NCBI GenBank assembly: GCA_010093605.1
Contig: MU004181.1
Location: 1,674,001-1,738,000 of the forward strand
DNA length: 64,000 bases
Direction: 5' to 3'
DNA from: Lophium mytilinum
Taxonomy: Eukaryota
Numbering within the stretch: position 1 is the stretch's first letter; each line of letters starts with the position of its first letter. The translations under genes were made by a program, and so were the position numbers. This document shows positions 15,335 through 38,180 of the stretch, piece after piece. The notes beneath the pieces were generated by a model. That model had not been told where the DNA came from. It made no database searches and worked only from the letters and a program-made list of their open reading frames with translations.

Positions 15335-15788
15335 ACTGAAATAGGAAAACACGACGACCGGGAAGATGAACACTTCTAGCGGCATATGTAACATATATTC
15401 ATCTCCATACCCATTGTCTTACCTTGTGATTCAACTTACACTTCTCCGCGTTGCGCCTTGTCCTTCATTGCTCCCATTCTCTCTTTCAAAGCAGATCTGA
15501 AGTGAAGTCCCTTATTCTCTTTACAGCACTGGCTGCCGTGCACCTAGCTGCTGCAGCTCCTAGTGATATCGGCCGTCGACATGGAGGGTATAATAAAACT
15601 AGGCTAAATGACTTGGCTAAAGAAGCTGGGCTACTATACCTTAGCACTGCCACTGACTATCTAAGTTTAAACAATACCACGTACATGTCGATCGCCACAG
15701 ACTCACATGAGTTCGGACAAGTTACTCCCGCGAACGAGCAAAAGGTGTGTGATGGGGATACTTACGTTGAGTAAGGATAGCGGCCAAA

Positions 15789-15927
15789 CGTAGCATGATC
15801 CCGCAATGATACTGTACCCACGATGGCTAACATGAATGCGAATTCGTGGATGTACTATATATAGAGCCGTCCCCCAACGTCTTCGACTACACAGACGGTG
15901 ATGCGATCATTCGGCTCCGCTACCGCC
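15789..15927 (+). repeat. Left copy (A) of duplicated xylanase intron-end/exon-2 start; degenerate
   Basis: Aligns to 18195-18327; acceptor TAG reads TCG; carries a 5-nt TATAT insertion and a 1-nt insertion. Confidence 0.9.
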
Positions 15928-17302
15928 GGCACACGTTAACTCGATGCTAAAAGTGAATGACTTGTCGTTCTCTGTGGCCTTCAACGCTCATCGACGAGAC
16001 TCGTCCTGGTTGTCAAACAGCCAAGCCAATCGCACGGTGTCTCCGTTCTTCAGATTGGACTGCTGTACGAACGTCGCGGGAATCGTAACGCGCTCGCCTC
16101 CACCAATGCAGATATTGGCGGTATCCCCGTATCTCTAAGTACGGAATTCGCCATGGGTGCTCCCGCTTAGCTTAACTGTCCCGCTCTGCTCACGCCCCGT
16201 ATCGAATGTGAAGTCGTGGAGTGGCCATTTATCATTTAGTTGCGTCCATAACGGGGGGTCTAACTGCGCCACCCACTCAGGGCAGTCGGGGAGGGAGTAT
16301 GTAGATGGTATAAACAGTGAGCGCAACATTATCATCATCATCGTTTCCGCTATCAGTTGTACGATGTCGGATACCCGCTCGCCGTCAAAGACAACTAACT
16401 TAACGAGATATGGAGTAGCGGCGTGCCGTTCCCAGAATATATAGTGTCTGCATCTGCTGGAAGGCTGTTCTCGACAACTCGGATTCAGGTGCTCCTGTGA
16501 TCGCGCCCAGAATCCCTGGCCGGAAGACCTCGAAGATGAATTTCGTCCGGCGGACCCCGTGTAGAGTCCATCTCCTGTTTCTGAACTGAGCGCGTTTGCA
16601 TAAACAACTTGGCGTGGGTCCTTTCGTTCGCCGCCAATGGCCGCAATGTCTTGGATACTGACCGGCCGGCCATGAATTAGAGCCTGGATAATGTTGTTCG
16701 CCCCGTCTGTGATTGACGTTCTGATTGTGCGCAATGTTGCTCTATGGTCCAGATCTAAGTGCAATCTAAGCAGGGCGGCCGGTGGGGGAGAGCAGATTGA
16801 TCTAGAGGTCTTCTGATGTGCAACAGCTTAAGTACCAAGCAAATACTTGGTACAGTGCCGCCGTTGTAGAGTGTGCTGGATACCCTCGCATATCGTGTTG
16901 CACTTCGCGTAGTTTTGTACGCAAGTCAGACTGAGCAACCAAGAGTAGCGATTTGTCCGGTAGCGTTGTCTGAATGGGATTCCGTTCGGTCTTCGCTCGC
17001 TTCGTTTTCAGGGTCTGATGATCGGCCGCTGGACCATCGTTGACACTCTCGACCAATAGTAGAGAGTTGTCTGGCGGCGTCATCTACATGGGATTCCATT
17101 CGGTCTTCGTTCGCTTCGCTGGACCATCGTTGACACGGTCTTCTTCAACGATGGGTCTCTTCTTAATGATGTCGGCCCTTGCGTGGACATCGTCGGCTAG
17201 TAAGATATCCAATATTTCGAGGGATGTGAGATCGTTGTTGCTGAGAAGGTCGGCAACTTCCATCCTATCCACGGTGCCCCATCCGATCCCGGTTGATTCC
17301 AT
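15922..17302 (-). pseudogene. N-terminal part of a GIY-YIG-nuclease-like protein (4 in-frame stops, 1 frameshift)
   Basis: Consecutive minus ORFs 17302-17084, 17083-16802 and 16764-16135 plus continued frame to 15922. Stops are TAG 17086, TAG 16804, TAG 16137 and TGA 15990, with a +1 shift near 16772. Motif VVY-x12-YTGSA...GFWARSQEHL...RHY...IAETMM. Confidence 0.6.
16975..17146. repeat. Internal imperfect tandem repeat (period about 113 bp) in the insert gene
   Basis: ATGGGATTCCRTTCGGTCTTCGYTCGCTTCG at 16975 and 17088 and GCTGGACCATCGTTGACAC twice; peptides VNDGPA..KRTKTEWNPM*MTPPDNSLLL vs VNDGPA..KRAKTERNPIQTTLPDKSLLL. Confidence 0.85.
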
Positions 17303-17612
17303 CTGATAGCTTCTTGATAGGCGAGCTGAAGACGAAAGAGTGTGCGACGAGTGAGGCCGTGATGGTTGGAGTGTTTAAGCTGGACGAAATCATACCAAGT
17401 GGCCAGGTGTAGGAAAGAGGCAATGGGTAGCGCGCATTGCGTGGCAGGAACAGTAGACGCATTCGAATATTTAAAGCAGGAGAGTCTGGACAATCAAGCG
17501 GACTAAACACTATCAAACTGTACATGGGGTATGTCCTGCTGGATATTACCATGCGTAAACATACGTTTAGTAATCCAGGCTTCGTGAAGGTCCTCCTCTT
17601 CACCCAGCGAGT

Positions 17613-18194
17613 TCATTCTGTAAAAGTTGTCTTTAGCTTCTTGATGCCATCCGCGAAATGCCCAGTCTTCGTTGTTTTAGAACGCAGCCATGCGGTGCCT
17701 TTCGCGCCCTCCACTTTAATGCCGAGTGAGTATACATATCCATCAGCAGCGGTCGCGTGAGATGCAAAACGGTAGCCTGGTTCGTCAAGGTGGAAATGTA
17801 TTGTAATCTCACACTCGTCTTTGAAGCCGCATTTGGCCATATCCGCAACCAGGATGGGCAACACGACTAGGCCGAGTATGCTGGTGAGTTCTATTCGACC
17901 TCCATACAAGGGATTAAGCTGGCGCACGAAATGTTTATAAGTAACTACGCGGCAGGGTGGGCTGCTAGATGACTCTGGATATGGAGCCATGAACGAGACC
18001 GGTCTGACAAGGTGCCTCCCGTGACTAGAGATAGTATGATCATCCTCCGGGAAAGAGGGAGGAGGTGGTAGGCCGGAAGACTCGTCGCCAGCATCGTGGA
18101 ATGCCACAGCAACCGCTCGCTTAAGTGGAAGAGGCTTATCTAAATCGACATCATCTCGTCCGACGGTGGCAGAGTGGAATTGGATCCAATGACT
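17613..18194 (-). pseudogene. C-terminal part of the same insert gene (no start codon; may extend to about 17503 via a frameshift)
   Basis: Frame is open right up to the insert boundary (SHWIQFHSATVGRDDVDLDKPLPLKRAVAVAFHD...); contains a second copy of the FAxxATxxD...LGIxV...W module seen at the end of the N-terminal part. Confidence 0.6.
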
Positions 18195-18327
18195 CGTAGC
18201 ATGATCCCGCAGTGATACTGTACTTACGTTGGCTAAAATAACTGCAAATTAGTGGATGTACATCGAACCCTCTCCTAATGTCTTCAACTACACCAACGGC
18301 GATGCGATAATCCGGCCAGCAATAGCC
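18195..18327 (+). repeat. Right copy (B) of duplicated xylanase intron-end/exon-2 start; intact
   Basis: Retains a branch-like GCTAA and the TAG acceptor (18250-18252), and continues into the full exon 2. Confidence 0.9.
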
Positions 18328-20208
18328 CATCACCAGATCCGACGCTGTCATAACTTCGTATGGCACTCCCAGCTCCCAGAGTGGGTGACAGGCACGAGCC
18401 ACACCCGCTCCGCCTTGCTCTCTATCATGGAGAACCACATCGCCCACGTAATGAGCCACTATTCCAAACAATGTTACGCCTGGGATGTGGTCAACGAAGC
18501 TTTTAACGAGGACGGAACGCTCCGAAGCGCCGTCTGGCTCGACACCATCGGACCTGAGTACCTCGAGCTCGCCTTCAAGTTCGCCGCCAAGTACAATGAC
18601 GGCAAGGCGAAGCTCTACTACAACAACTACAATATCGAGACCGGGAATAACAAGTCACTCGCCGTAGCCGCCATGGTCAAAGACTTCCAAAGCAAGGGAA
18701 TCCAGATCGACGGCGTGTGCCTACAGTCGCACTTCACTGCCGGCAGCTCGCCCTCCTATGAGCAGCAGATGGAGAACATGGCGCAATTCGTAGCTTTAGG
18801 CGTGGAAACAGCTATCACAGAGCTCAACGTGCGGATTGAGCTGCCAACGTCGAAGGACAAGGAGGTGCAGCAGGCAACTAACTACGCGAACGCGGTGAAG
18901 GCGTGTAAAGATGCGGATGGATGTATTGGTGTGACGGTGTGGGATTTCTATGATCCGTATAGCTGGTGAGTAATTGTCCACGGGTGTTCATTGGTGGAAG
19001 TGATATGCGGCTAACCACGTGCCGAACAGGGTGCCGGCGGTCTTTGAGGGGCAGGGCGACGCCACGCTGTGGTGGGGAAACTTTACAAAGAAGGAGGCGT
19101 ATTATGCGGTTGCGGATGTGCTGAGAGAATAGAAGAGACCGAGTCGCGATTGGAGATGAGATGAAGATTACTCACTGAAGTCTTGGGGTGTGTATCACGT
19201 GATGTGTGTTTATATATTCAATGACCGACTTCATACCTTTGTAATTCTACTAATGAATACGCTTCACGCCCTACACGTACAGCGGCTAGCTAACGAGAAC
19301 TGTCATACGGACATGGCCTTCCGTGCAAGCCACAGTTGCTCAACTAATGCGTGGGTAGAGGATTCCGTGAATCCCACCGGCGTCGGCATCCCCAAGTAGC
19401 ATGGGACAAAGTCTATTTTGAGCGGGGAAAGATGCCCTTGTCGACGAAGGGAAGTGCCGAGGGATTTCTCATCCGCAGGAGGGTGTGGAGAAGTGATGTG
19501 CAAGCTCAAGGATAGCCAGTGAAGATCGGCAGGGCATCGTAATTTGGCCTCCCGACCTGGCTGTCAGGCTGGCAACAGCAGACTCTCGTGAGAGTACGAC
19601 ACCAGCGTGCTACCAACCCCGCTTCTCGTCCCGTCTGACATGCATTTTTCGTGAAGTGAGAGAGCGCCACGAACTGCTTTGAGGGGAAGCCGAGCCGCTA
19701 ATGCACTGCGCTGGGAGGCTGCGGGAGCGGCGTTCCTGGGGAAGCTTGGCCCGGATCACTCTTTGCAAATGCACGAGGTTGGGATCTGGCATGATGATGA
19801 CCGGCACGCAGGGAGAGGGATAGCCAGCTGACCTGCCCAACGCGCCCAAGTTCTTTGCTGAAGCCGGCGCGCACAGCATCGTGCAGCTCTTGGCACGCCG
19901 CGACCGCGATCGAGGGCGGCCCGGCGACTTGCACACGCGGTGGAAGCGGTGGAAACGATGGGCAACGCTGGAAACATTGCCGTTCTCGGCTGGCGGCGGG
20001 CCTGCGCATCGTGGTCTGTGGCGTCCGGGGTGCTTGCAGCTCGGTCGTGAGAGCGTCATGGCTTCCACCTTGCGCCGAGTATTAAATCACCAGCGCCCCT
20101 TACATCGCCCTCCGCTCCCCTCCACCACGCTGAGCATTCGTTCAATTCCTCGCCGTCGTTTCCACCTGCCTGCCTCTGCTGCTGGAACCCATTCTTACGC
20201 CACTCAAC

Positions 20209-23170
20209 ATGAAGTGGCTATCGGCTGCAATCTGCTTGCAGCTGCAGCTGGCCCATGCGTTGGCTGGAGCACCACCCGTAAGTCGTCTCGGGAATCCGTA
20301 AACAACTCCCAACACTGCACCTTAGCATCAGTATTCCCTATACCGCATGCATGAAGTCACAGACAGGTCTCCTAGGCTTCGTCGTGGGCTTGTTCCCTTT
20401 TCTCGACGTAAACATTGCGCCTGTTTCTTTTGTTGTTTTGCGCTAACTCGTGTAAACAGTACTCCAATGTCGCGCGACAATCACCCAACAACTCCACCCC
20501 ACCGCCCGATTCTAATCAGGCATTCTCTCCGCCGAAATATCCATCGCCATGGATGGACGGCTCGGGCGGTTGGGAGGCGGCTTACGCAAAGGCCCAGGCA
20601 TTTGTCAAGCAATTGACTCTGCTTGAGAAGGTCAATCTCACCACCGGAGTTGGGTAAGTTAATAGCACCGAACTTGGATGACGACATTCTGACAGTAAAC
20701 AGCTGGGAAGGAGAAGCCTGTGTTGGCAACGTCGGCGCTATTCCACGCCTCGGTTTCCCGGCCCTCTGCATGCAGGATTCTCCATTGGGAGTCCGGTTCG
20801 CTGATTTCGTCTCTGCATTCCCCGCTGGTGGCACTGTGGCTGCATCATGGGATCGCGGTGTCTGGTATGAGCGCGGTTACCAGATGGGCATGGAGGTAAC
20901 ATTTGGACTCCTACTCAAGTAAATTCGAGACTAACTGATATCTAGCACCGCGGCAAAGGAGTCGACGTCCAGCTAGGCCCAGTCGTAGGACCCCTAGGCC
21001 GCAGCCCCGAGGGCGGACGCAATTGGGAGGGCTTCAGTCCCGACCCTGTCTTATCTGGCATTGCCGTTGCCGAGACCGTCCGCGGTATTCAAGATGCGGG
21101 CGTCATTGCTTGCACCAAGCACTACATCCTGAACGAGCAAGAGCATTTCCGTCAACCCGCCACTGTGAATGGGACTTTCTTGGAAGCTATCAGCTCGAAT
21201 GTTGACGACAAGACACTCCATGAACTCTATCTGTGGCCATTTGCCGACGCGGTACGAGCTGGAACGGGCAGCATCATGTGCTCCTACAATCAAGTCAACA
21301 ACAGCTATGCTTGCCAAAACAGCTACCTCATGAACTACATCCTCAAGGGCGAGCTCGGTTTCCAGGGTTTCGTCATGAGCGATTGGTCTGCTCAACATGC
21401 CGGTGTCAGCAGTGCTCTTGCGGGGCTTGACATGACGATGCCAGGAGACACTGCGTTCGACACCGGCCTGTCGTTCTGGGTAAGCCTACATTCTTCTACA
21501 AGCTTGCTATTCTTGAATCTAACTTGGATTAGGGTACGAACTTGACTATCTCCGTCCTCAATGGCACCGTTCCGGAATGGAGACTCGATGACATGGCAAC
21601 TCGAATCATGGCTGCTTACTACTTAGTCGGCCGCGACACAGCATCAGTTCCCGTCAATTTCAACTCCTGGTCCCTCGACACCTTTGGCTATGAACATGCT
21701 TATGCCCTGTCATCATATGGCTTGATTAATCAGCACATCGATGTTCGAGCCGAGCATGCATTGGCCATTCGGTCTGCAGCTGCCCGTTCTACTGTTCTCC
21801 TGAAGAACACTGCGGGAACTCTGCCACTAAAAGGAACCGAAAAATTCACTGCGGTCTTTGGTGAAGATGCCGCTGACAACGCCTATGGACCAAATGGCTG
21901 CCCGGATCACGGTTGCGACAATGGCACCCTCGCTCAAGGTTGGGGTTCTGGGACGGCTAGCTTCCCCTACCTCGTCTCTCCTCTCACAGCAATCCAAAAC
22001 GAACTCCTGCAAAATGGCAAGGTTGTGCAGAGTGTGACGGATAACTGGGCCTACACTCAAGTTCAAACGCTTGCCAGACAAGCAAGCGTTTCCATCGTGT
22101 TTGTCAATGCCGACAGTGGTGAGCAGTACATCGTCGTCGACGGTAACGAGGGTGATCGCAACAACCTCACGCTATGGAAAGATGGTGACACATTGATCAA
22201 GAATGTCACGGCTAATTGCAACAATACGATTGTTGTTATTCACTCGGTGGGACCAGTTCTGGTAGATGCCTGGTATGACAATCCGAATGTCACTGCCATT
22301 CTCTGGGCAGGTTTGCCCGGAGAGCAATCTGGAAACTCCATCGTCGATGTTTTGTACGGCCGTGTCAACCCTGGAGGCAAACTGCCATTCACTATGGGTG
22401 CGACTCGGAAAGACTTCGGAACAGATCTGATATACACGCCGAATAATGGAGACAACGCGCCGCAGGACAACTTCGTGGAGGGTGTATTCATCGATTATCG
22501 TCATTTCGACAAGTATAACATCGCTCCAATCTATGAGTTCGGATATGGACTTAGCTACACTACCTTCAAATACTCGAGTATTAGCGTTTCGAAGGTTTAT
22601 AGCGGGCCTTACACTCCTAACGAAGGCACGACTGCGGCCGCTCCAACGCTCGGAAACTTTAGCACCGATCCTGCAGACTACCAATCCCCATCAAACTGGA
22701 CATTCGTACCTGCCTACTTATATCCTTGGCTCAATTCGACAGATCTCGAGAAGGCGTCTCAAGAGCCTGATTATGGTCAAGACGGGTGGATTCCTGACGG
22801 TGCATTGGATGGCTCGCCCCAGCCTCGCATCGCGGCTGGCGGAGGACCGGGTGGCAATCCTCAGCTTTGGGACACTCTCTTTACCGTCACTGCGACGATT
22901 ACGAACAACGGCACTATTGCGGGAGAGGAAGTAGTGCAGCTGTACGTCTCTTTGGGCGCGCCCGATGACCCGAAGGTCGTTCTCCGCAACTTCGAGCGTC
23001 TGAGCATTCAGCCCGGACAATCAGCGACGTTTACGGCGGACATCACGCGGAGAGACGTAAGCAATTGGGATACGGATAGCCAGAATTGGGTCATCTCGAA
23101 GTATCCGAAGAAGGTGTATGTGGGAAGCTCGTCGCGGAAGCTTCTGCTGAGCAGCGACCTCTCTTTCTAA
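20209..23170 (+). CDS. bglA: Secreted beta-glucosidase, GH3 (BglA/Cel3A-like; multi-exon)
   Basis: Signal peptide [76 protein letters not shown] (nucleophile), [10 protein letters not shown], FnIII-like tail. Confidence 0.95.
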
Positions 23171-35900: not shown

Positions 35901-36881
35901 GGATCTGATCCGACGGCATATCGCTGGTGCAAATCTCCCCCAAAAGGAAGGTCGTGTCGCGGTTAGCCACAGCTGGCTTGCGATAAAGCATCCAGCCTTC
36001 CTGCAGCCTCAGGCGCCACCAGTCTGGCCACACAGCCAAGCACTACATACCACCGTACAGGATGATCCCGACACCTTCGTCCCACGGCAGACATTAGCAT
36101 ATTTCCTTGGGTGCAGGTTGCACAGCGTGTTTTAAGATGGGTCAGAGCTGACCATAGCTGCCAAGAAGCACTGCAAAAAGAAAACATGGAGGAACCCCCA
36201 AGACTGCTGAGAACAACGGGAAGGAGGGCTGAAGTGGAATTACGTTCTCGACTTGCAAACTGCGACGATTGCCATATGGAGAGGTATGTCCGCATGCAGG
36301 CACCATCGCGGGTCGCCTGTTGCGCGTTTTCTTGTCTCATGTTTCCAGCGTGACGCAGCGTCCGCTATCTCTACGCCTAAGATCTTGATACGCAACGCCT
36401 ACTCATATTTCTATTGTCCTCCACGCCAAGGATGACCGTTCAGCTTATCCCATCCTGCCGGATGACAGAGAGTCTACTCAGTATGCGGGACCCCGCCGGA
36501 GCCATCGTCTGAACTCAGGAGACATGGCAGAATATGCCCTGATTACTATTCATCGCATTGCGTTAAGCCATCTGTAAAAAGAAACGAGCGGTAGGTTTCG
36601 TAGACTACATCTCTGTTCTCGCGGGTTATCTGATCCCCAACTCTCAGCATTTTGATCCTTACGTAAGTCTGCCGCAGTATTACTAGTAGCCGAATCGCGA
36701 TATCAATCCATCTTCAATCAGTAGTAACGGAGGGGTGTCACTTGCCAAGTGGCACTACTTTCGGTTTCTCAACTTAAACAAAGGTTCAGTCATCCGCCTC
36801 ATCTAGTCGTCTCTTCTAATCGGCATCACACGGTCAGTTCTGTAATCTCTTGCATTTACTTAGGACAGTACGTCCCAACGA

Positions 36882-36941
36882 CCTCTGCGTCTCCCTCTGC
36901 GTCTCCCTCTGCGTCTCCCTCTGTGTCCCCCTCTACGTCCT
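36882..36941. repeat. 12-bp minisatellite (CCTCTGCGTCTC x3 plus 2 degenerate copies)
   Basis: Read directly; the minus strand would encode EGDA repeats. Confidence 0.85.
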
Positions 36942-37907
36942 CATCTATGTCATCTAGACCAGTATCATGCGGTTGAATTTGTAAATACTTGCATAAAAGC
37001 AGACAATTGGGCCTGGAGCGCCCCTTATAAACCTCCTTCTCTGAATGCAACAGTTCCACTACGTGACTGACTAGCAGTCCTATGAGTGCCCCCCTCTACG
37101 GCCATCCAAATCAACTGTCACACCGTCAATAATGCTACAACATGTAGCCAAAGTACCCAGATATGCTTCAAAAATCTCCCCCCATCTACTACTATCTACG
37201 TTTGCATATATAGCTCCAACGACACAGTTAGCTAGCAGCCACCCTCTATGTCCCCCTCCGCGTCAATTGAACCAACATCACGTCATGAATCCCGAAGCTT
37301 CTTTCTATACGTTAGACAAGGAGTTCTCATAGGTCGCGATTCCTCAACCGCTCCCCCCTCGTACCTGCTAGCATGTCACGGTTACTTATGTAACTTTGTC
37401 TTACACCACACGACAACGCGTCCTAGTACTGGCCCCCCTAAATGGCTACCCCCGACGTTCCCCTTCTCACTATCAAAAGTTCGTAACTAGTACTTCCTCC
37501 AACAAAACCAGGCAATGCGTCCTTATGCAGGATGTCTAGTCATTAGCCCCCCACGTCTTTCTCTCTGCATCAGCCGTCACACAATCAATTCCGTACCTTC
37601 TTTAAAAAGTTCAGACCACGCGATGTCTAGACAGGCCACGGGTCGGCAGCCTTCCCACGTTTACGTTTGATAACATCAACATCCCCGCGACTCTTCTCTC
37701 TGCCCCGAAAGAGGCCTAGGGCCCACATCACGTAGCGCTCAGCGTGATGCTGTTTGTGAACTCTTGAACCGGAAGTCGGGCGAGGGAACCAGGGGGCACT
37801 ATAGGAACCCAGGGAGCTATTGCACGTGGGGTGGACGTCATGTGCGATTTGGAACAAAAAGGGAGGTTCGTGGGGGAGGATTTAGAGGACGCGTAGGAGT
37901 TGGTTGT

Positions 37908-37979
37908 GGGAGTAATGGGAGTAATGGGAGTAATGGGAGTAATGGGAGTAATGGGAGTAATGGGAGTAATAGGAGTAAA
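37908..37979. repeat. 9-bp tandem repeat (GGGAGTAAT x7 plus 1 degenerate copy)
   Basis: Read directly. Confidence 0.95.
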
Positions 37980-38180
37980 AGAAGGTAGACCTTAGGATAG
38001 CAAGCGGTTATATAAAGGGTCTCTCTCGCGCTGCTACCGCTGACTATGGGGACTGATCATCATTGCATCGCAAGGATCGAAGGCTCTTCCAATGCACGTC
38101 AAAGAACGACACCCACGTAAGTGAGACTGGCACTGAGTTATCATGTAGGGGAGAGATCTTGAAATGGCAAAAGAAAAGAA

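Follow-up and report, generated by a model that had tools for sequence, protein, structure and literature searches.

How does a gene come to stand tail before head in the middle of another gene? The question is raised by a glycoside hydrolase family 10 (GH10) xylanase gene of the fungus Lophium mytilinum, which lies in a 64,000-nucleotide stretch of DNA (NCBI GenBank assembly GCA_010093605.1, contig MU004181.1, positions 1,674,001 to 1,738,000 of the forward strand). This whole stretch is called the window here, and all positions refer to it. The xylanase is interrupted by a segment that carries, on the minus strand, the C-terminal piece of a second gene (G), a spacer and then the N-terminal piece of G. 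The best explanation, with about an even chance of being the right one, is that the insert is one period of G derived from a DNA circle. An extrachromosomal, double-stranded circle of about 2.28 kb, carrying one complete, lineage-specific G (about 650 codons) and about 310 bp of spacer, would most likely have formed from the home locus of G. It would have opened at a single point within its own reading frame and been end-joined, without homology, into a break in the xylanase whose strands were cut 127 bases apart. Fill-in of the overhangs would have duplicated 127 bp of the target, namely the 3' portion of intron 1 with the 21 codons that open exon 2, and G would have been a passive passenger, split at the opening point and later decayed.

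The features on which this proposal turns are the following.
15789-15915, plus strand: left target copy (L), with 58 nt of the 3' part of the intron and 21 codons; it has an extra 5-nt TATAT, and the acceptor AG is changed to CG.
15916-18194, minus strand: the insert, apparently a single period of the rotated unit G; 2279 bp, delimited by the ends of the duplication and the start of the match to a second genomic copy.
17613-18194, minus strand: C-piece of G, 193 open codons followed by TGA, starting with SHWIQ at the right end of the insert.
17303-17612, minus strand: spacer of 310 bp from the stop of the C-piece to the ATG of the N-piece, without a long frame and without a run of A or T.
15916-17302, minus strand: N-piece of G, with its ATG at 17302, about 460 codons, open at the left end.
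16938-17136, minus strand: internal tandem duplication in G, with a spacing of 114 nt; 67 nt at 82% identity and an exact 20-mer.
18195-18316, plus strand: right target copy (R), with the 3' part of the intron, an intact AATTAG acceptor and the start of exon 2.

The insert is a real structure of this genome and not an artefact of assembly. A single Logan contig covers positions 15400-19100 with zero differences, and in a second run each junction lies within a Logan contig of its own, with word depth uniform at about 164-172. An assembly artefact had been named as a possible undoing of the original prediction, which was made from the sequence of the window; both junctions are reproduced by these independent contigs. 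The Logan runs containing the stretch come from the same probable source sample, with no independent specimen among them.

The original prediction also described a foreign segment of 2273 bp beginning at 15922. The foreign segment is there, but its left end lies at 15916 and its length is 2279 bp. The left copy of xylanase sequence stops at 15915 and a second genomic copy of G aligns from exactly 15916; positions 15916-15921 therefore belong to the insert. Two proposed microhomologies do not survive. The sequence CTACCGCC, taken to fit both the xylanase and the insert, falls within the insert (15916 onward) and not in sequence shared with the xylanase. Similarly, the dinucleotide CT seen at both junctions carries no weight, since the terminal hexamers of the insert match at only two of six positions, and a short terminal redundancy of the circle was rejected for the same reason. 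No bases are shared at either junction. The reported lack of terminal inverted repeats, long terminal repeats, reverse transcriptase and transposase was borne out: no terminal inverted or direct repeats were found, and Pfam at E ≤ 1 detected no transposase, reverse transcriptase, integrase or Rep domain in the insert. Further, there was no Rfam match in the insert, no tRNA in the window and, by blastn, no second copy of the insert inside the 64-kb window.

The insert is bounded by a direct repeat of xylanase sequence, in which positions 15789-15915 align with 18195-18316 over 127 nt at 79.5% identity (E = 1.6e-26, blastn). The query in this search was 15700-18400 and the subject the whole window, and the matches were the query itself, the 127-nt repeat and the tandem duplication at 16938-17136. 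Of the xylanase, the repeat takes in 58 nt at the 3' end of intron 1 together with 21 codons from the start of exon 2. The interruption of the xylanase had thus been read correctly, but the flanking duplication was absent from the earlier account. L has AATTCG at the position of the acceptor, and its 5-nt insertion disrupts its frame. The substitutions between L and R comprise 13 transitions and 8 transversions.

Within the insert, the order claimed for the minus strand was confirmed: the C-terminal piece at 18194-17613 is followed by the 310-bp spacer and then by the N-terminal piece from the ATG at 17302. The spacer is presumed to be the complete intergenic or regulatory part of the unit, and the N-terminal part of G that holds the 16938-17136 duplication is probably disordered. 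Four stops and one frameshift had been counted in the N-piece, and the count is right, with TAG at 17086, 16804 and 16137, TGA at 15990 and the frameshift near 16800 (between about 16830 and 16770). A mitochondrial genetic code was rejected, as TAG makes up most of the internal stops. The frames are also compatible with a 34-nt intron instead of a frameshift, a reading rejected because such an intron would be shorter than known fungal introns.

G is or was a real coding gene. The two longest frames, of 230 and 193 residues, both lie on the minus strand, and their lengths are equalled in 9 and 1 of 1000 Markov-simulated sequences, respectively. Positions 15949-16031 show 24 listed differences from the second genomic copy, 13 of them at third, 7 at first and 4 at second positions of codons (P = 0.028 for at least 13 at third positions). 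The TGA at 15990 in the window is TGG in the second copy, which in turn has two stops of its own; both copies have therefore decayed. Repeat-induced point mutation (RIP) was rejected as the cause of decay: the insert has a TpA/ApT index of 0.72 and a (CpA+TpG)/(ApC+GpT) index of 1.11, like the rest of the window, and 8 of the 21 substitutions between L and R are transversions. Judged by sequence, G is an orphan gene, present at least twice in this genome, and would comprise about 650 codons when whole.

The second copy lies on another contig of the same genome (15,095 bases), which matches 15916-16564 in four pieces, with 49 differing letters over 273 aligned bases. Its depth, 132-161, is that of single-copy sequence, compared with 164-172 for the contigs of the window. 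At the other side of the break point, this copy runs past 15916 for at least 255 letters that are unlike the xylanase. At 80% likeness, only the window's own contig covers 16565-18194 and the xylanase parts, a result that is not evidence against further copies, an array or a second xylanase. The contig of the second copy seems to end near the tandem duplication at 16938-17136, as contigs do at repeats.

Is G then rotated by one period? As had been noted, the outer ends of the insert join in frame, and they do so at the exact ends, 15916 and 18194; in-frame joining by itself has a 1-in-3 chance. Better evidence comes from an internal repeat of the protein. The final 59 residues of the N-piece resemble residues 109-166 of the C-piece with an alignment score of 31, which 218 of 500 shuffles match and which is not significant alone. 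Once the two pieces are joined at 15916, the alignment crosses the join, extends over about 70 residues and scores 47, a value reached by 1 of 1000 shuffles. Among 117 variants of the join, made by trimming up to 8 residues from one side and up to 12 from the opposite side, the best was the one without trimming, at 47 against 38 for the runner-up. As a control, 3 of 367 unrelated 40-residue heads reached 47. The frame and the internal repeat thus both point to insert ends that would abut in the source.

The second genomic copy bears on the same point. Where it continues in the frame of G it reads WLHTMSRKIE, and the head of the C-piece, after its first two residues SH, reads WIQFHSATVG. The ungapped BLOSUM62 score of the pair is 12, with a null fraction of 0.0028 when every 10-mer of the window's six reading frames serves as background; if a handful of offsets is allowed, the chance of such a ten-residue likeness rises to roughly 1-2%. 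On these sequence comparisons, rotation of G by one period would be the most likely reading, holding with about two chances in three.

Several results weigh against this reading and against the insertion scheme built on it. With the join at 15922, where the original prediction had placed it, the alignment to the internal repeat scores 36, which 78 of 1000 shuffles reach and which is marginal. At the DNA level, a comparison of the 30-base continuation of the second copy with the right end of the window is not significant (null fraction 0.06 to 0.61). The idea of a single-period rotated gene has gained an in-frame join in the best register and a second copy that crosses the break point, but neither an unpermuted full-length copy nor a homologue spanning the join was found among the sequences searched; support for the join comes from a weak internal repeat and from ten residues of the second copy. 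The internal repeat would also permit a different reading, in which two neighbouring paralogous genes share a repeated domain and the two ends of the insert happen to cut it at equal phase. A further difficulty concerns the target copies. The 21 codons shared by L and R contain 12 differences, 10 of them at third positions and all 10 synonymous (P = 5e-4 versus an even spread), and third positions differ at 10 of 21 sites versus 9 of 58 sites in the intron part (Fisher p = 0.006). From this pattern, the pair does not look like a target duplication of which one copy has simply decayed. Selection on R together with a G/C-to-A/T mutation bias would weaken the anomaly to p of about 0.01-0.02, without abolishing it.

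The step from a rotated unit to a circle has one main rival, in which a linear chromosomal piece of a head-to-tail pair or array of G-like genes was captured at a break and no circle was involved. The near-exact period would then be due to chance, or to both cuts falling at the same phase of the repeated domain. The order of tail, spacer and head is exactly what a tandem pair would give, G is present in at least two genomic copies, and the repeat consensus G-S/T-x-W-I/L alone would account for the likeness between the second copy and the head of the C-piece. However, two cuts made independently would have to agree in phase to within about one codon over a 2279-bp period; no slid join scores as high as the one at the exact ends, and the known second copy is on a contig of single-copy depth. 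We regard such a fragment as unlikely, although it is the alternative with the most in its favour. For an insert of exactly one period, the simplest source would be a circle with a single opening, because a fragment of a linear array needs two cuts at the same phase.

How a circle would have entered the chromosome is a separate matter. The Campbell-type crossover suggested originally does not fit. The frame of G is continuous across the ends of the insert and therefore leaves no room on the circle for the 127-bp xylanase segment, there is neither homology at the junctions nor a recombinase domain in the Pfam results, and 127 is not divisible by three. End joining of the opened circle into a staggered break, as proposed above, would produce the duplication by fill-in.

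The consequences for the host gene can be read from its structure. The gene at 15502-19132 (plus strand) that houses the insert is a GH10 xylanase by Pfam (PF00331, E = 3.6e-75, 253.5 bits, frame 18253-18969), and it has both WDVVNEA and ITELN; the WDVVNE and TEL motifs are the seats of the GH10 catalytic glutamates. Outside the target copies it is made up as follows.
15502-15744, plus strand: exon 1, encoding the signal peptide and the N-terminus according to its translation; the first codon is GTG, where homologues have Met.
15745-15788, plus strand: single-copy 5' part of intron 1, with a GTGTGT donor at its start.
18253-18966, plus strand: exon 2, beginning within R; the frame is intact from here to the end of the gene.
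18967-19030, plus strand: intron 2.
19031-19132, plus strand: exon 3, ending in TAG.

Since R keeps both the AATTAG acceptor and exon 2, the whole insert would be removable as part of a 2.5-kb intron, and splicing from 15744 to 18253 would excise everything between. The frame 18253-18969 is 100% identical to P0002, a protein of 319 residues listed by NCBI as 'glycoside hydrolase, partial [Lophium mytilinum]'. P0002 begins within exon 1, and its ...PANEQK runs straight into WMYIEPSPNVFNYTNGD..., which is position 15744 joined to 18253; the public gene model therefore takes 15745-18252 as a single intron of about 2.5 kb. The second-best match after P0002 is a GH10 protein of Glonium stellatum, P0003, with 74% identity over exon 2. 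Exon 1 is identical to P0003 at 47 of 78 residues (60%, whole length including the signal peptide) and, in the mature part only, at 36 of 48.

The present state of the xylanase is mixed. Downstream of the insert it has 271 sense codons and a stop, with no internal stop, and under neutral drift at 8.5%, half of the divergence of the flanks, about 7% of simulations remain stop-free over the xylanase body. This hints that the gene was kept under selection after the insertion event. On the other side, the window xylanase has N after TEL, where D is found in 31 of 31 aligned homologues, and it deviates at 6 of the 94 columns conserved in at least 30 of the 31 homologues (F14L, G15S, G46E, D173N, G204C and D240N); the same leave-one-out test gives 0-4 deviating columns for each of 28 closer homologues. 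The GTG first codon and these six departures are signs, at the level of sequence, of present-day relaxation, and with the change from TELD to TELN the xylanase may be a gene in early decay.

The synonymous excess between L and R also has another possible source: L and R could be remnants of two separately evolving functional xylanases, which arose by an old tandem or ectopic duplication and were brought together around G when deletions or a rearrangement followed. This would suit the 10 synonymous changes among the 12 codon differences, the greater divergence of third positions than of the intron part, and the stop-free body of R, an outcome that neutral drift permits at the low frequency just given. 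Against it, L and R overlap by just 127 bp and stop exactly at the two ends of a unit-length insert, a coincidence not expected of truncations that occurred independently. Further, the intron part is 84% identical between the copies, and L and R have in common the derived EPSPNVF, at which the five nearest homologues have ER, QR, SR or AR. Exon 1 and exon 2 also look equally close to P0003. Two former xylanases are thus an improbable source of the flanks, and duplication of one target at the break remains the preferred account.

What G encodes was sought by several routes. The label 'nuclease-like' given to it in the original prediction found no backing, as no nuclease family, structure or homologue was matched by Pfam, NCBIfam, PHROGs, the PDB, the Atlas or protein searches. 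The only lead is a Pfam match to PF04014 (SpoVT/AbrB, MazE-antitoxin) in residues 246-267 of the N-piece, which at 18.1 bits is below the cut-off of 24.7 (E = 0.0026). This sub-threshold match (16090-16160, minus strand) sits where the first copy of the internal repeat begins, and the second copy of the repeat opens with a similar V-V-L-P stretch. The arrangement may hint at two swapped-hairpin-like domains in G. NCBIfam and PHROGs gave nothing for the C-piece or for the 304-residue N-piece, and for the N-terminal 166 residues of G, which were compared with family libraries only, they gave just an amidase model (E = 0.033), far short of its cut-off. A PDB sequence search with the G pieces returned no match, and in the Atlas search the top match of one piece scored 0.76 and the other piece had no usable match. 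Single-sequence AlphaFold models of the pieces, with predicted local distance difference test (pLDDT) values of 40 and 34, were too poor for a fold search.

Homologues of G were equally scarce. An exhaustive HMMER search with the C-piece against 1.84 billion representative proteins, counting matches of E up to 0.001, gave a single one (E = 4e-6), to a repetitive protein of 1559 residues, and this was judged spurious. A word-index search with the N-piece (302 residues, stops as X) found no homologue among proteins of near or greater length, and no relative turned up in two scans of metagenome DNA, one for the C-piece and one for the 230-residue frame.

These searches bear on a more ambitious alternative, namely that G is the remnant of an autonomous mobile element, a single-gene circle with its own integrating enzyme (a tyrosine recombinase, Crypton-like, or another). 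One gene with a short spacer, more than one copy per genome, the lack of classical transposon ends and the permuted layout would all agree with such an element. Yet no recombinase, Rep or other catalytic domain was found with Pfam, NCBIfam or PHROGs, neither the C-piece nor the 302 residues of the N-piece showed a credible relative in the protein sets just described, and the two copies seen are both decayed. The opening inside the element's own frame and the 127-bp duplication suit random breakage better than a site-specific reaction. We therefore hold an autonomous element to be very improbable. The same very low probability is given to its boldest form, in which G would be the fossil of a new kind of eukaryotic mobile DNA, a single-gene circle whose frame is whole only when circular. 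It is just as doubtful that chromosomal entry of such a circle would open the frame and that excision and re-circularization would restore the gene.

Known element classes were also considered and rejected. A Crypton-like tyrosine-recombinase element has no catalytic domain to show for it (Pfam, E ≤ 1), in a test whose power is lowered by the decay of the gene. Helitrons have 5'-TC...CTRR-3' ends, insert between A and T, make no target duplication and encode Rep/helicase; the insert has ...GACT at its end and a C on either side, a 127-bp duplication flanks it, and no Rep/helicase domain was found in it. A retrocopy is marked by a poly(A) tract, either 3'-terminal or at an internal tail-to-head joint. 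A retrocopy mediated by a long interspersed nuclear element or derived from a circular RNA was rejected, as no A/T run is present at either end of the insert or in the 310-bp spacer. Finally, an artefact of assembly or haplotype collapse is scarcely credible, for although the runs come only from the possible source sample, a separate Logan build is identical, contigs of even depth span the junctions, and flanks that are about 80% identical are too diverged for a collapsed haplotype. A passive circle, opened once and end-joined, remains the best account of the insert.

The surroundings of the xylanase are ordinary gene-dense DNA, with genes for GH47, FSH1 hydrolase, adaptin, DUF3074, GH3, forkhead, MFS transporter and kinase proteins, among others, and no transposon domain was found in the 23 long frames scanned around it. 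The GH3 enzyme, with N- and C-terminal domains and an Fn3-like domain, is encoded at 20946-23170 on the same strand, 1.8 kb downstream of the GH10 xylanase, and the two genes may form a small xylan-degrading pair. Elsewhere, 36001-38000 is the sole sampled 2-kb stretch of the window with RIP-like indices (TpA/ApT 1.01; (CpA+TpG)/(ApC+GpT) 1.04).

Among known systems, Cryptons and other tyrosine-recombinase elements, as well as Helitrons, are eukaryotic elements thought to use circular or rolling-circle intermediates without terminal inverted repeats. To our knowledge, none of them makes a 127-bp target duplication. The insert resembles them in having no terminal inverted repeats and differs from them in having no tyrosine-recombinase or Rep/helicase domain.

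A closer parallel is the reinsertion of extrachromosomal circular DNA (eccDNA), which is a known kind of event, accepted in yeast and recently in mammals, and hardly documented in filamentous fungi. If the proposed origin is true, the insert would be a fixed, old, gene-sized case showing that circle reinsertion operates in filamentous ascomycetes and that it can disperse a whole gene. It would also show a long staggered-break duplication rescuing the host gene through a regenerated splice acceptor, with the insert becoming a 2.5-kb intron. With a second copy of G already located in the same genome, the case is cheaply testable.

In the human and mouse germline, eccDNA-mediated insertions are recognized by a cyclic (AB to BA) order of blocks, and 82 of 327 filtered insertions, with known and unique source loci, were placed in this class (bioRxiv 10.64898/2026.09.03.749254). 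The insert in the xylanase is like them in being non-repetitive, non-transposon and kilobase-sized, and would be like them in its cyclic-shift order and in joining by end joining or microhomology. Unlike in the mammalian cases, the shift would here be recognized from the frame, the internal repeat and ten residues of a second copy. The xylanase insert also differs from the mammalian ones in its 127-bp target duplication and in having no terminal microhomology.

Region B of wine yeast is a 17-kb segment of five genes with a tested replication origin (Galeote et al., 2011, PMC3053389). It is integrated at several loci in circular permutations, and different strains carry it in several forms. The likeness to the present case lies in the fungal host, in nonhomologous breakpoints and, if G is rotated, in the permutation of one unit with a gene 'broken in two' at the opening. 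The present unit differs in being a single 2.28-kb, one-gene unit, inserted once, of great age and with no evidence of autonomous replication (PMC3053389).

As for the duplication, staggered single-strand breaks followed by fill-in and end joining are described for Drosophila inversion breakpoints as duplicating single-copy target DNA (PMC3355041). There, as in the xylanase, formerly single-copy target DNA flanks a rearranged segment and no transposon is involved. The Drosophila duplications are inverted copies of 1 to 7 kb on the two sides of inversions (PMC3355041); the one in the xylanase is a direct repeat of 127 bp on the two sides of an insertion.

The filamentous ascomycete Magnaporthe oryzae offers the most direct comparison. 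In a dedicated search, eccDNA-mediated translocations were looked for in 306 of its genomes and 0 were found (Joubert and Krasileva, 2022, PMC9694575). The insert in the L. mytilinum xylanase would have the form that was sought there, two adjacent blocks in reversed order in a foreign context, likewise in a filamentous ascomycete. If confirmed, it would be a positive example of eccDNA reinsertion in another ascomycete class than that of M. oryzae (PMC9694575).

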